In this document: piece by piece, positions 31,895-43,842 of the stretch
Layout of the letters: each line of letters opens with the position of its first letter
Numbering within the stretch: the first letter of the stretch is position 1
Assembly (NCBI GenBank): GCA_963813715.1
Contig: CAWFAK010000007.1
Coordinates: 192,001 to 256,000 of the forward strand
DNA: 64,000 nucleotides
Direction: 5' to 3'
Source of the DNA: an uncultured Planctomycetaceae bacterium
GTDB taxonomy: Bacteria; Planctomycetota; Planctomycetia; Planctomycetales; Planctomycetaceae
Notes under the pieces: model-generated
Databases searched by the model: none
The model's input: only the letters and a program-made list of their open reading frames with translations
What the model was told of the DNA's origin: nothing
Position numbers and translations under genes: made by a program

Positions 31895-32002
31895 GGCCGG
31901 TGGACGACCGTAATAGCGAACCTTCGAGGGCCTTGTTTGAGGCTGTAGATTGCGAATCCGCACGAAACCTGTGCGGATTCCCTCCGTTGAAAGGATCTCA
32001 TC

Positions 32003-32371
32003 ATGGCGGTTCAAACCTCGAACGAACTCATCCACAAGAAATGCTCCCCCTGCGAGGGCGGCGTGGCAGCGGTCCAGCCGGACGAGGCCAAGTCCCAGCT
32101 TGAAAAGCTCCCAGGTTGGCGGATCTCGCACGCCGGCAAGCGAATTCGCAAGGACTGGACCGTAAAGAACTTCATGGCCGGGTTGGATTTTTTCAAACGC
32201 GTCGGCCAACTCGCGGAGAGCGAAGACCATCATCCCGATCTGCACCTTGAAGGCTATCGCAACGTCTGGATCGAACTCTCGTCGCACGCAATCGGCGGAC
32301 TGTCGGAAAACGATTTCATCCTGGCTGCGAAGATCAACGACCTTTCCGTCGAGCTGCAGCCGGCCAAGTAA
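32003..32371 (+). CDS. phhB: Pterin-4a-carbinolamine dehydratase
   Basis: CSPCEGG, AESEDHHPDLHL, SHAIGGLSENDFILAAKI; AAGGA RBS. Confidence 0.93.
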   Translation: MAVQTSNELIHKKCSPCEGGVAAVQPDEAKSQLEKLPGWRISHAGKRIRKDWTVKNFMAGLDFFKRVGQLAESEDHHPDLHLEGYRNVWIELSSHAIGGLSENDFILAAKINDLSVELQPAK

Positions 32372-32528
32372 GCACTACCGCGAGCGGCCGGAGGCAGTTC
32401 TCCGCGGCGCGGGAGCGGACGGGTGAAGCTATGAGGAGCGGTAAGAGGTAGGCCGAGCCGGTTGGTGGTTGTGCTTGAACGTGGTAAACGGAGTTTGTTG
32501 CCAACCGTTTCCACAAAAGGACACCGCC

Positions 32529-33549
32529 ATGAAATTTGCCGGCTGCGACCTACACAAGCAGACTATCACGATTTGCGTCGTCGACCAATTGCGGCGGGTC
32601 TTGGAGCGTCGGACCGTGCGTTGTGGCGAAGAGCGGACCATCCTGGCATTCTTCGAAAGACTCGGGGAGTTCGAGGCTGTCGTGGAAGCGACCGCCAGCT
32701 ACGAATGGTTCGTGCGATTGATCGAGCCCGTGGCCCATCGCGTGTTGTTGGCCCACCCGAAGAAGCTGCGTGTGATTGCCGAGAGCACGCGTAAAAGCGA
32801 TCGGCTCGACGCGCAAATCCTCGCGGAGTTCCTGGCCTTGGACATGATTCCGACGTCTTACCGGGCGACTCCGCGGCAGCATGAGCATCGACGACTGGTG
32901 CGTCAGCGGGGCGGCGTTCAACGGCGATTGACCTCCGTCAAGAACCGTCTGCGCCGCATTCTCTGCGACTACAACGCGGATCGCCCCAGTCTGTTCACCG
33001 TGGACGGGTTGGCGTATCTCGCCCAAGTGCCTCTCTCGGGAGCGGATCGGTTCGCCGTGGATCAAATGGTCGAAGAGTTGCACTTCGGGCGGCGTCAGCT
33101 GCTGGCCGTCAACGCCCGGCTGAAGGAGTTCGCCGAGGCGGCGCCGCTTTGCGAGCAGGAAGGCGCGGACGCTGTTGCGGACGATCCCCGGAGTGGGCTT
33201 CGTGACCACCGAAGTTGTGCTGGCCGAGTTGGCAGACATTGATCGCTTCGGTTCGCAAAAGCGGGTCGTCGCTTACGCAGGGCTCTCACCGGGTCAACGC
33301 GAGAGTGCGGGCAAGAGTCGGGAGCTGCACCTGGAGAAGAACGGTTCGACGCTGCTGCGCTCGACGCTGGTGGAAGCCGCCTGGCGGCTGGTTCAGCACT
33401 CGTTACGTTGGCGTCGGATTTATGAACGATTGAAGTTGCGCGTGCGTGCCAAGAAGGCGATCGTCGCCGTGGCCCGCCGGTTGTTGTGCCTGATGACAGC
33501 GATCTTGAAGACGGGCCAACCCTACTCGCTCAGCCAGCAACCGACTTAA
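32529..33549 (+). CDS. IS110-family DEDD recombinase/transposase (one extra G near 33162)
   Basis: GCDLHK, VVEAT, KSDRLDA (DEDD), TIPGVG, YAGLSP..RESAGK (conserved Ser), AIVAVARRL. Deleting one G gives a 339-aa ORF. Confidence 0.95.
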
Positions 33550-33589
33550 ATCCCTGACCTTGGCAGGAGAGCACAAAACAAAACATCGA

Positions 33590-33800
33590 TCGAAAGCGCT
33601 GCGACGACCCACAGACGACCCCGCCCCCGGCCATGAAGGCGTTCCCTCAAAAGAGCGACCTTCGAAGGGTGAATGGGGCGTCTCTCGAAAGTCGGCTTCC
33701 TGGCGACATCGACGGACCTGTTCCAGACCGTTGGTGATCCCGAATAGATGGTTGAGCGTACCGCATCGCCCAGATCACCACTTCAAACGCAAAAACCAAC
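33590..33800 (+). ncRNA. Putative bridge RNA (seekRNA) of the IS1111-type element; ends approximate
   Basis: Stem-loops carry CCCCGGCCA and GAAGGGTG (target halves) and ATAGATG and CTTCA (donor-junction halves). Confidence 0.8.
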
Positions 33801-33824
33801 CCTTGACGCTACCCTTCTCATAGA

Positions 33825-33915
33825 TGGCCGGGGCGCTCCGCGTAGCGGAAGCCCCGGAACGCCGGCCTAGCCCACCACTTGCCTCCGAGCCTTCAGGGAC
33901 ATTCGCCCGCCGAAT
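33825..33915 (+). repeat. REP-like repeat, copy 1 (interrupted by the IS)
   Basis: About 90 bp, closely similar to 42937-43025 (TGGCCGGGG.GCTCCGCGTAGCGGAAGC.CCGGAACGCCGG...CCACTTGC.TCCGA). Confidence 0.85.
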
Positions 33916-34025
33916 CGGGCCGAGAGAGCTGGTGTGTCTGCGGCCTATTCAATTGAAGCGAAAGAGCTTTTTGGGTTTGCCTTCGTGGCGGCGCTGGTCA
34001 CGACCCTTTTCGATGTCGACACGAC

Positions 34026-41265: not shown

Positions 41266-42735
41266 TTGGACCCGAACTTGGTTCCCGCCGAAATCCCCAA
41301 ACCGGGCGATGCCCCGACCGATGCCAACCCGACACTGGCCCGGGCGCTCGGCCTTTTCGACATCACCATGCTGGTCATGGGCAGCGTTATCGGGGCCGGC
41401 ATCTTCGTGGTCCCGCACGACGTCGCCAAGATAGTGCATACGCCCGAACTCGTCCTAATCGCGTGGGTTTTGGGCGGGGTGGTGAGCTTGGCGGGCAGCC
41501 TTGTGTACGCGGACCTCGTCCGGCGTCGCCCCCACGTCGGCGGACAGTACGCGTTCCTGCGCGAGGCGTACCATCCCGTCGTCGCCTTTCTGTACGGCTG
41601 GTGCCTCCTCTGGGTCATTCAGTCCGGCGGGATGGCGTCGGTGGCCGTGGTCTTCGCGCGCTACTTCATGGAATTGGGAAATCTCTTCCCGGCCATCCTC
41701 TCCGGTTCGCCGGCCGAGGCCCCCGGCACGGCGGCGGGCGACACGCTGGTCGGCAAGGTAATCGCGGCCGTCGCTATCGCCATCTTGACGGCCGTCAACT
41801 GCCTGGGAGTCCGAACCGCAAGCACGGCGCAGAACCTCTTCATGGTGCTCAAAGTCCTTGCCATCGTTGTCCTGATCGCCTGCGGCCTGCTCGTTGCGCT
41901 GCCGTCGGGCGGACAATCCGGCGGCCAGATAGCTGAGACTGCCGGAGCGTGGTGGATGGTGCCCGCCTTGGCCGCCGCCCTGGTGCCGGTCCTGTTCGCT
42001 TTCGGCGGCTGGCACACGACGACGTTTATGGCGGCCGAGGTTCGCGACGCCCGACGGACCTTGCCGCGTGGCCTGCTTCTAGGCGTCGCGGGCGTGACGG
42101 TGCTCTACCTGGGTGTGAATTACGTCTGCCTGCGCGTCCTGGGCGTGGAGGAACTGGCCGCCAACGGCAGCCCCGCGTACGAAGTCATGCGCCGGGCGCT
42201 GGGCGGGCCCGGCGCGGTCATCCTTTCGGCCGGGATCGCCGTCTCGGCCTTGGGCTTCCTGAGCCAGGCGGTGCTCACGTCGCCCCGCGTTTATTTCGCG
42301 ATGGCCCGCGACGGCCTCTTCTTCCAAGCCGTCGCCCGCATCCACCCGCGCACCCGAGTCCCCGTCGTCGCCATCCTGCTCCAAGGCGCGTTCGCGAGCG
42401 TCATTGCAGTGTCGGGCACGTTTCACCAGATTCTGAACTACGTCATGTCGGTCGAATTGGTGTTCCTAGCCCTGACGGCCTTGAGCCTGTTCATTTTGCG
42501 GCGCAGAGACAAAGCTGAGGCGATCGTCGCGAGCGACACAGTGCCGGGTCATCCGGTGACCACGTTACTTTTCGCGGCGGCAACGCTCGCCGTGGTCGCC
42601 GCCATCGTTTACGAGTATCCGGCGAACAGCGCGATCGGACTCGGGATCGCCGCGGCAGGGGTTCCGGTCTACGCCTTCTGGCGGTGGTGGAACCGCGGAG
42701 GAAAGAACACGGTGGAGCTTGATCATTTCGGATAA
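41266..42735 (+). CDS. APC-family amino acid permease
   Basis: GSVIGAGIF, GGQYAFL, FAFGGW, RVYFAMARDGLF, about 12 TMs. Start approximate. Confidence 0.92.
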   Translation: MDPNLVPAEIPKPGDAPTDANPTLARALGLFDITMLVMGSVIGAGIFVVPHDVAKIVHTPELVLIAWVLGGVVSLAGSLVYADLVRRRPHVGGQYAFLREAYHPVVAFLYGWCLLWVIQSGGMASVAVVFARYFMELGNLFPAILSGSPAEAPGTAAGDTLVGKVIAAVAIAILTAVNCLGVRTASTAQNLFMVLKVLAIVVLIACGLLVALPSGGQSGGQIAETAGAWWMVPALAAALVPVLFAFGGWHTTTFMAAEVRDARRTLPRGLLLGVAGVTVLYLGVNYVCLRVLGVEELAANGSPAYEVMRRALGGPGAVILSAGIAVSALGFLSQAVLTSPRVYFAMARDGLFFQAVARIHPRTRVPVVAILLQGAFASVIAVSGTFHQILNYVMSVELVFLALTALSLFILRRRDKAEAIVASDTVPGHPVTTLLFAAATLAVVAAIVYEYPANSAIGLGIAAAGVPVYAFWRWWNRGGKNTVELDHFG

Positions 42736-42930: not shown

Positions 42931-43073
42931 GACGGGTGGCCGGGGAGCTCCGCGTAGCGGAAGCGCCGGAACGCCGGTTCAGCCCGCCACTTGCTTCCGA
43001 ACTGTCAGGACATTCCCGGCCGAACGAACTGACGGAGAAACGGGGGCTTCCGCGAAGCGGAGCGCCCCGCCAC
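42931..43073. repeat. REPIN-like inverted doublet; contains an empty IS target
   Basis: Left arm GTGGCCGGGGAGCTCCGCGTAGCGGAAGCGCCGG; right arm (43041-43073) reverse-complements to GTGGCGGGGCGCTCCGCTTCGCGGAAGCCCCCG. Confidence 0.85.
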
Positions 43074-43197: not shown

Positions 43198-43842
43198 GTG
43201 ACCGCGGCAGACCATGGTCAGACTGATCCCGGCCGGACAGACCCGCCGCCGAAAAACACTGGCGGACAAGCCGCCAGTGCTACCCGGTCGGAAACAGGCC
43301 GGATCGATGCGGCTCTCGTCGCCGAGCTTTACGATCGTTACGCCGAGGAAATCGGCTCGTTCTTAAAGGGTGTGCTGCGGAACTCCGACCTGGCGGCCGA
43401 GGCTCTGCAAAACACTTTTGCCAAAGCAGTTGAGTCGGGCCATACGGCCCGGGAGGAAACGCTCAAAGGGTGGCTGTTTCGGGTGGCTTTTCACGAAGCC
43501 GCCCTGCTCCGGCGACGCGGTCAGGTGCATGAACGCTCGCTGAGGCAAATGGCCCGCAACAGCCCGGCCGCGAACGAATCGGCCGAGCAACCCCACGAGC
43601 GGCTCGCACGAGACGAAACACTGGCCGAAGTTCGCCGGGCCCTCCGGGAGCTTCCGCCGGATCAGCGACAAGTGGTGCAGATGCGGATTTATGAGGAGAA
43701 GTCGTTCGCGGAAATCGCCGCCGACCTCTCCTTGCCGCTGGGCACCGTGTTGACGCGGATGCGGCTGGCCATGCAAAAACTGTCGCGACACATGCGGCCA
43801 CCGGGGAGCGAAGGCCCCTCGGACCGCGGTCGCCACGGATGA
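43198..43842 (+). CDS. ECF RNA polymerase sigma factor
   Basis: Region 2 (LYDRY..ALQNTF..WLFRVA) and region 4 (LPPDQR..SFAEIA..LGTVLTRMR). Confidence 0.93.
   Translation: MTAADHGQTDPGRTDPPPKNTGGQAASATRSETGRIDAALVAELYDRYAEEIGSFLKGVLRNSDLAAEALQNTFAKAVESGHTAREETLKGWLFRVAFHEAALLRRRGQVHERSLRQMARNSPAANESAEQPHERLARDETLAEVRRALRELPPDQRQVVQMRIYEEKSFAEIAADLSLPLGTVLTRMRLAMQKLSRHMRPPGSEGPSDRGRHG

Follow-up and report, generated by a model that had tools for sequence, protein, structure and literature searches.

An IS1111-like insertion sequence of a Planctomycetaceae bacterium that very probably finds a host palindromic repeat by means of its own guide RNA

RNA guidance is established for insertion sequences (IS) of the IS110 and IS1111 groups (PMC11187229, PMC11208160), and several members of these groups, namely ISPa11, ISPpu9 and ISPpu10, are reported to target repetitive extragenic palindromic sequences (REPs) (PMC1525189), as an earlier sequence-only reading of the DNA studied here had noted. 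The guides of IS1111-type elements, called seekRNAs, are described as RNAs of 70-100 nt that co-purify with the transposase and carry the complement of the top strand first, the two parts overlapping in the target; a promoter formed at the junction is also proposed for these families (PMC11187229). Here we analyzed a stretch of 64,000 nt from an uncultured soil bacterium of the Planctomycetaceae (assembly GCA_963813715.1, contig CAWFAK010000007.1, positions 192001-256000; hereafter the window, C7:192001-256000), which holds a 1401-bp IS of the IS110 family, IS1111-like. The sites of this element are very probably chosen by a seekRNA or bridge RNA that derives from its 3' non-coding region and is aimed at the outer ends of the A-type units of a REP-like repeat family. 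The earlier suggestion that the element appears programmed against a host repeat is thus supported by complementarity to both target strands and by covariation in related elements.

ISPa11 resembles the window IS, by description, in having a DEDD transposase of about 340 aa, a long 3' non-coding region and subterminal repeats (PMC11187229, PMC1525189), as well as site- and orientation-specific insertion into palindromic repeats and the top-strand complement on the 5' side of the guide (PMC11187229). It differs in its host (Pseudomonas aeruginosa rather than a member of the Planctomycetota), its repeat, its guide and its terminal extensions (7 + 3 bp versus 3 + 3 bp), and more than 1000 unique insertions are reported for it, versus 8 perfect sites here. 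Furthermore, its seekRNA was shown experimentally, whereas the guide of the window IS is predicted from its sequence. IS621 of Escherichia coli and ISPpu9 and ISPpu10 of Pseudomonas putida also have a DEDD recombinase, a dinucleotide core, REP targets and two-strand recognition (PMC11208160, PMC12288879), but they carry their RNA in the left end rather than the right, with a reversed guide order and very short subterminal repeats. Finally, ISEc11 and ISXne4 parallel the series of relatives described below (from genomes G000 and G005 and locus L028) in that the RNA stems are kept and the target-matching bases are swapped together with the target (PMC11187229). In our series, by comparison, the target shifts from one repeat family to another within a single genus, the two families have the GGGTG left half in common and mainly the right guide has changed.

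The IS110 traits found in the window IS are a DEDD/PF02371 transposase, site- and orientation-specific insertion, a TG core and no long duplication of the target. The core of IS621 is CT. Traits of IS1111 are the longer 3' non-coding region (277 bp, 33550-33826, versus 103 bp 5' of the gene, 32426-32528), and the order of the guides as read from the sequence. An intact copy (for example C7:42929) encodes a protein of 339 aa that matches PF01548 (DEDD_Tnp_IS110, E 2.4e-13) and PF02371 (E 5.7e-23), both above the cut-off, and the NCBIfam model NF033542, "IS110 family RNA-guided transposase", with 214.5 bits (cut-off 140) over profile positions 1-343 of 343. Its sequence GLSPGQRESAG gives GL-P----SA and then a G; for IS1111 transposases of 330-350 aa, a range that includes this length, the reported motif is GL-P----S(t)G, with SG, TG and occasionally TA (PMC11187229). 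The subterminal inverted repeats (10 nt with 90% complementarity, set 3 bp in from either end) fall within the 7-17 bp given for IS1111 by one source (PMC11208160) and are one short of the 11-13 bp given by another (PMC11187229). The extensions beyond them, of 3 bp each (AAG on the left, ATG on the right), or 5 + 1 bp if the TG is given to the left end, depart from the 7 (or 6) bp and 3 bp described for IS1111 (PMC11187229). A second, longer inverted repeat (20 nt with 80% complementarity) is found about 35 bp in from the IS ends (32460-32479 and 33782-33801).

The locus is a clear natural example of a mechanism that other bacteria are already known to have: the earlier observation is confirmed, and its interpretation is supported and sharpened. 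The overall picture is unchanged, since REP targeting and RNA guidance are already in print (PMC1525189, PMC11187229, PMC11208160). What the locus offers is a worked natural example outside Proteobacteria, in which a repeat family of the host gives a probably RNA-guided IS a safe place to land, together with data on occupancy by mismatch, on discrimination of repeat arms by one base and on retargeting within one genus. These data help to understand the specificity rules of seekRNAs of the IS1111 type, on which less work exists than on IS621, and to annotate elements of this kind and their short guides in environmental genomes. In a limited literature search, which is no proof of absence, none of the matches listed reported such an element in Planctomycetes, although a survey of GTAG/CGTC repeats mentions tagged repeats in this group.

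Insertion sites and their occupancy

The genome searched (G000) comprises 7.49 Mb in 18 contigs, with 63% G+C and an estimated completeness of 82.6%. Searching the whole assembly with blastn gave 8 full copies of the IS, each spanning positions 1-1401 at 97.5-100% identity. The element begins with AAGCTATGAGG and ends with CTCATAGATG; in the window, the left flank ends in ...GACGGGTG (32418-32425) and the right flank begins with GCCGGGGCGCTCCGCGTAGCGG (33827). Both the left flank and the IS end in TG, which leaves a 2-bp ambiguity in the breakpoint, and so the ends are not fixed to the base as had been thought. The sequence-only reading was right that the joined flanks reproduce 42931-42960 (GACGGGTGGCCGGGGAGCTCCGCGTAGCGG) with one mismatch (C/A at the 16th base). 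The likeness is in fact about three times longer than it noted: a local alignment runs from 32418/42931 to 33914/43024 with 83 of 94 positions identical and 2 gaps. It covers 88 bp rightward of the IS and only 8 bp leftward.

GGGTG precedes and GC(C/T)G(G/A)G follows the IS in all eight copies, which speaks against insertion into unrelated sequences. In six of them the site is the outer end of an A-type unit from a single repeat family, always with the same position and orientation, and the right flank continues as GCCGGG(G)CGCTC(C/T)GC-nnn-GCGGAAG(C/T)CCCGGA. The remaining two are outside the family, C7:435600 at GGGTG-GCTGGGG (here and below, a hyphen within a target marks the insertion point) and C8:47604 at GGGTG-GCCGAGG, a one-mismatch site. 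The latter copy (L004, G000:C8:45704-48104) splits an alpha/beta-hydrolase gene at a codon boundary, its flanks matching positions 2-22 and 24-165 of the Hydrolase_4 profile, and is a natural off-target event.

To relate occupancy to match quality, the 8 copies were removed in silico and the genome was searched for the 12-mer GGGTGGCCGGGG. Four of the 8 perfect sites are occupied, compared with 4 of 158 sites with one mismatch and none of 1860 with two. All 8 perfect 12-mers are A-unit ends of the repeat family (the empty ones by their repeat label, the occupied ones by the A-unit sequence on their right). The 12-mer occurs in G000 only at the A-arm outer ends of the doublet family, hence the IS lands at those repeat ends. 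The occupied one-mismatch sites comprise two GGGC variants in A units, one GCTGGGG and one GCCGAGG. In terms of the guide described below, the first is a distal change that affects only the last pair (2 of the 6 GGGC-variant sites are occupied), the second leaves a G-T wobble and the third introduces one A-C mismatch. Twelve B-arm ends of the family read GGGTGGCGGGGG, with a central C-to-G change, and none is occupied (4/8 versus 0/12, one-sided hypergeometric p = 70/4845, about 0.014, calculated by hand). The one base distinguishing the two arms lies at the center of the 9-bp guide duplex.

The empty site of the window is the outer end of an intergenic inverted palindromic doublet, as first described, with the A unit on the plus strand and the B unit on the minus strand (Table 1). 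It had been proposed as an unoccupied landing site at 42937-42938. There is indeed an empty perfect target, although these two bases are the shared TG; with the IS written AAGC...GATG, insertion is predicted between 42938 and 42939. The further expectation that the repeats provide many intergenic landing sites is generous, as only 4 perfect empty sites are left (C5:1203417, C5:1286401, C7:234938, which is window 42938, and C9:353567). The genome also has 19 GGCTGGGG sites.

Table 1. Positions of the insertion sequence, its predicted guide and its targets in the window
Feature	Position	Strand	Basis or remark
Left half of occupied target, GGGTG; last TG is the shared core	32421..32425	+	Invariant in 8/8 left flanks
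Insertion sequence, 1401 bp, IS110 family, IS1111-like	32426..33826	+	8 end-to-end copies; metagenome contig with exactly 1401 bp skipped
Left subterminal inverted repeat, CTATGAGGAG	32429..32438	+	Pairs with 33814-33823
DEDD transposase gene, frameshifted in the window copy	32529..33549	+	Open reading frames; alignment of copies; Pfam/NCBIfam matches
Predicted target-binding module of seekRNA/bridge RNA	33614..33682	+	Folds; same architecture in 8/8 homologous segments
Putative guide segment T, CCCCGGCCA	33625..33633	+	Reverse complement of TG + GCCGGGG, top strand, 9/9 pairs
Putative guide segment B, GGGUG	33667..33671	+	Same as top-strand left half-site, so complementary to bottom strand
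Donor-binding part, tentative	33694..33750	+	Within second module, 33683-33790
TTGACG, -35-like hexamer, 18 bp from right end	33803..33808	+	Candidate promoter half
Right subterminal inverted repeat, CTTCTCATAG	33814..33823	+	Pairs with 32429-32438
Right half of occupied target, GCCGGGG, then rest of A unit with hairpin GGGGCGCTCCGC-GTA-GCGGAAGCCCC	33827..33860	+	Unit C7:225823-225859
A unit of window doublet	~42931..42975	+	Profile match 42933-42971 (C7:234933-234971)
Empty perfect target, GGGTG-GCCGGGG	42934..42945	+	C7:234938; 1 of 4 empty perfect 12-mers
B unit of window doublet; outer end GTGTGGCGGGG, not a target	43039..43073	-	C7:235039-235073

Probable guide segments and their covariation with the target

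The 3' non-coding region of the IS contains a predicted target-binding module with an outer stem (33614-33622 with 33675-33682) and an inner hairpin (33635-33663). Two segments, T and B, lie on either side of this hairpin; they overlap on TG, and T, the complement of the top strand, is 5' of B. Only 4 columns of the guide region (33646-33650) vary among the 8 copies, all of them apical in the inner hairpin, compared with dozens of variable columns in the coding region. In the mechanism that we favor, RNA made from the 3' non-coding region would be bound by the transposase and guide it to the target, with the two guide segments flanking the inner hairpin within the outer stem. The segment CCCCGGCCA would pair with the top strand of TG-GCCGGGG and GGGUG with the bottom strand of GGGTG, the two together specifying the 12-bp target, with TG as the shared crossover core. 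The IS would then land in one orientation at the mostly intergenic A-arm ends, and rarely at near-matches elsewhere. Movement would proceed through a circular intermediate, with an expected junction ...CATAGATG-AAGCTATG.

Related elements were collected from genomes of the genus and from other Planctomycetaceae assemblies, 6 elements having both flanks known. The 8 homologous segments all have the same outer stem, loops and inner hairpin, and the outer stem shows compensatory changes (CCCC/GGGG, CCUCC/GGAGG, CCUUC/GAAGG and ACUCC/GGAG). These changes were read from individual folds; a MAFFT alignment placed the stem pairs of the subgroups in different columns. One relative is a 1608-bp element of genome G005, with 4 copies all inserted between cGTAGGGTG and GGACAAGGCC, which form the outer end in another family of doublets. 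For its target, GTAGGGTG-GGACAAG, it carries in homologous position the guides CUUGUCCCA (9/9) and UAGGGUG (7/7), within an outer stem GCGACCUCC/GGAGGCGC. Element L028 is inserted at GGTCGTATG-GCACGCC and has the guides GGCGUGCCA, which pairs at 9 of 9 positions with TG-GCACGCC, and UCGUGUG, with 6 pairs and 1 wobble of 7. Element L029 is found at GGGTG-GCCGGGG, the target of the window IS, and has the guide CCCCAGCCA. The left guide is longer (UAGGGUG, UCGUGUG) in the relatives whose left flank matches correspondingly. Overall, cognate guide and target form 9 of 9 pairs in G000, G005 and L028, 8 in L029, 5 in G008 and 3 plus 1 wobble (ungapped) in L030, and non-cognate combinations with different targets form 2-5.

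The repeat targeted in G005 belongs to a second, GTAG-tagged doublet family, GTAGGGTGGGAC(A/C)AGGCC..., whose outer GGGTGG is common with that of the first family. In G005, G008 and G009 it begins with GTAGGGTG, and exact 14-mer sites (TAGGGTGGGAC(A/C)AG) number 48 in G005, 35 in G008, 23 in G009 and 0 in G000. G000 has only the first family, and G005 has 48 sites of the second and 1 of the first; hence, each IS variant matches the resident repeat family of its host. Both repeat families and both IS types are present in G009. With slightly more doubt than belief, we propose that an IS1111-like lineage re-aimed its right-hand guide between the two repeat families and kept the left GGGUG guide. 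The IS would perhaps be tied to the conserved repeat end, possibly a part handled by the enzyme that mobilizes the repeats, and the repeat hairpin might provide a second, structural gate and thereby account for the near lack of insertions at near-matches outside repeats.

One may ask whether the transposase recognizes the repeat directly, by its sequence or hairpin shape, with the complementarity of the guide being incidental or auxiliary. This is in keeping with the half-site GCCGGGG forming the base of the stem of the unit (GGGGCGCTCCGC-nnn-GCGGAAGCCCC), with nearly all of the 128 non-repeat one-mismatch sites being empty, versus 2 of 6 filled GGGC-variant sites, and with the report that the target stem-loop of ISPpu10 adds specificity beyond base pairing (10.64898/2026.03.19.712850). 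An exact 9-mer match is, moreover, reached in about 4% of shuffled sequences. However, 2 of the 8 copies are outside the family and have only the short motif in common with the others, one of them within the Hydrolase_4 gene, and the A and B hairpins are nearly alike and yet differ in occupancy together with one base of the guide duplex. Direct recognition also does not predict a guide that changes with the target in G005, L028 and L029. Taken together, these results make it improbable.

Guidance by the RNA of the element remains very probable in our view, even if a number of observations weigh against it. First, one extra A in a GGAAGG run near 33160-33162 breaks the transposase gene of the window copy, and the same insertion is present in 4 of the 8 copies, at four sites (the window, C7:435600, C12:9579 and C12:90468); IS contigs of three metagenome runs are free of it. 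The common frameshift indicates either that defective copies were moved in trans by intact ones or that gene conversion took place. Second, half of the perfect sites are empty in addition to the non-repeat near-matches mentioned above, and further determinants, such as the hairpin of the target, may act besides the guide match. Third, the left guide of the window element has only 5 nt, and an exact 9-nt match between a non-coding region and a 20-nt target arose in 206, 192 and 163 of 5000 mononucleotide shuffles. As such a match is not rare among shuffles, each single match is only modest evidence, and the weight lies on its homologous position and on covariation.

The evidence on the RNA itself is also unfavorable in part. 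An Rfam scan of 32300-34000 gave no match even at E up to 1; contigs from RNA-labelled libraries contain the IS and cannot show a transcript. Taken as a whole, the 277-nt non-coding region is not more stable when folded than its shuffled versions (z = -0.68, 46 of 200 at least as stable), and only the module of 80-95 nt gave a consistent fold architecture. Lastly, 2 of the 6 elements with both flanks known, G008 and the single-copy L030, do not fit. The 1438-bp IS of G008 has 3 copies (L024, L025 and L013) inside a common block of more than 2.6 kb; its left flank is the GTAGGGTG repeat end, and its right flank, TGCTCCATG..., mismatches its own guide. Another repeated element may contain this IS or have truncated it. 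Its guide predicts the site TAGGGTG-GGATCAG, which is absent from G008, G005 and G009; the nearest repeat variant, GGACCAG, pairs at 8 of 9 positions (read by eye).

The host repeat family and insertion polymorphism

The repeat family was searched with an nhmmer profile built from 41 units defined by regular expression, a single 45-nt seed having given 1-3 hits. We found 56 REP-like units in G000, arranged as 21 convergent doublets with spacers of 17-115 bp and 14 singletons, and so the repeat is far from being restricted to the two places of the window. The units are imperfect palindromes of 35-40 bp with the hairpin GGGGC-GC-TCCGC nnn GCGGA-A-GCCCC, in which A arms read GGGTGGCCGGGGCGC...CCCCGGA and B arms GGGTGGCGGGGGCGC...CCCCCG. 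The core pattern was counted, allowing one mismatch, in 12 genomes of the genus. It has 33 matches in G000, 26 in G006, 21 in G007, 19 in G002, 15 in G003, 12 in G009, 3 in G010, 1 in G005 and none in G001, G004, G008 and G011, and is thus found in 7 of the 11 other genomes; the reversed pattern, used as a control, had 0 matches in all 12. Since G002 and G003 carry the family and have no match to the IS, the family is one of the hosts rather than a part of the IS. The G002 locus orthologous to the window doublet (L046, G002:C3:889278-892675) lacks the doublet and has about 56 bp of unrelated sequence instead, homology resuming at CGCAAAT; doublets therefore come and go between species.

The stretch was found in 20 metagenome runs from 19 studies of soil and rhizosphere, and four runs were examined contig by contig for joints of the IS. 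An X2 contig joins 32423 to 33825, skipping 1401 bp with a 2-letter ambiguity and restoring an uninterrupted unit, and an X10 contig passes directly from 32425 to GCCGGGGCGCTCCGCG. Record 25 of X3 and record 10 of X10 bridge the flank into the IS. Hence, both alleles of the occupied locus exist, including the empty one that the sequence-only reading had proposed to look for at 32425. Its other proposal, an insertion at 42937-42938, found no counterpart: none is present at 42938 among the metagenome rows listed, where cross-matching between repeats inflates the bin, so that no conclusion is drawn. Long-range joints between 33855-33894 and 43015-43043 were considered as deletions and rejected, as they correspond to other doublets of the family matching across the two units of the window.

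These contigs also bear on the idea that the repeat is a piece of the IS, such as a longer right end, a footprint or a solo end, which would make the "empty site" a relic. The idea draws on the fact that the repeat always lies to the right of the IS, as reflected in the lopsided likeness of the two window sites. Yet the skipped segment has exactly the length of the IS and leaves the unit whole, the right ends of the copies are uniform (...CATAGATG) and the sequence to their right varies after about 35 bp. The repeat is missing beside two copies, the B arm of the doublets, which make up most units, is never a site of the IS, and, as said, two genomes (with 19 and 15 core matches) have the family and no IS match. 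We consider this explanation extremely improbable.

Related genomes add some information on occupied sites. In G007, the IS has on its left the orthologue of C9:21478 (a GGCTGGGG site) and on its right that of C5:1203417 (98.6% identity), a perfect site that is empty in G000, so that a target free in one genome is filled in a sister genome. On this contig (L009, C165:1-1766, 1766 bp) the left flank corresponds to C9:21479-21701 of G000 and the right flank to C5:1203275-1203417, indicating either two insertions merged in assembly (a chimera) or an IS-mediated recombinant. The IS of G009 abuts the orthologue of the C9:754835 unit. For the flank of the window copy (31900-32425), only matches of 28-60 bp were found in G002, G003, G006, G007 and G009.

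Whether the repeat deserves the name of REP is a separate matter, which concerns the label and not how the IS finds its target. "REP-like" stands insofar as the units form inverted palindromic doublets; a REP in the strict sense, associated with a REP-associated tyrosine transposase (RAYT), is not established. The target could instead be another small palindromic element, for example a miniature inverted-repeat transposable element (MITE) with the A and B arms as terminal repeats, in which case the nearest parallel would be IS4321/IS5075, which target the terminal repeats of transposons. Such an origin is compatible with the number of units, 56, which is below the more than 100 copies per genome usual for REPs (PMC2817692), and with the lack of a conserved GTAG tag before GGGTG in the first family, where the bases are variable and often GAC. 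None of the 8 matches to the Y1 transposase (PF01797) in G000 is flanked by units on both sides, one having a single unit about 0.9 kb away. The doublet has inverted ends of about 35 bp and is absent from the orthologous G002 locus. By contrast, palindromes of this size, mostly head-to-head and with such spacers, match the description of REP dimers (PMC3733652), GTAG is present at the outer end of the G005 sister family, and the incompleteness of the assembly (82.6% complete) means that a RAYT locus could be missing. No target-site duplication is apparent around 17 of the 21 doublets, a result to be read with caution as automatic end-finding was unreliable for several of them. We regard a non-REP origin as unlikely, albeit with less assurance than for the two alternatives above.

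Tentative donor-binding part, candidate junction promoter and neighboring features

Downstream of the target-binding module, a second module may contain the donor-binding part (Table 1). Within it, GGCUUCC (33694-33700) is complementary to the left-end G-AAGC, and in 5 of 7 elements this segment tracks the triplet at the left end; AAUAGAUG (33743-33750) has the sequence of the right-end bases ATAGATG and is invariant among elements, hence uninformative. The hexamer TTGACG close to the right end is a candidate half of a promoter that would be completed at the circle junction; TTGAC(A/G) is present 18-19 bp from the right end in all 7 elements read, in keeping with the promoter proposed for such junctions (PMC11187229).

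Both window sites are intergenic, between open reading frames (ORFs) supported by Pfam (read at these two sites). The occupied one is bordered by a pterin-4a-carbinolamine dehydratase ORF on one side and, on the other, by a convergent ORF with pyrroloquinoline quinone (PQQ) repeats, and the doublet lies between an amino-acid permease ORF (ending at 42735) and an extracytoplasmic function (ECF) sigma-factor ORF (starting at 43198). Just inside the predicted ECF sigma ORF, at 43254-43287, is another palindromic repeat with the core CACTGGCGG-ACAAG-CCGCCAGTG. This 34-mer has 63 matches on both strands of G000 with up to 4 mismatches, and many matches of 31-40 bp at 92-97% identity in five sister genomes. 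The motif also occurs beside the IS copy C5:1486992.

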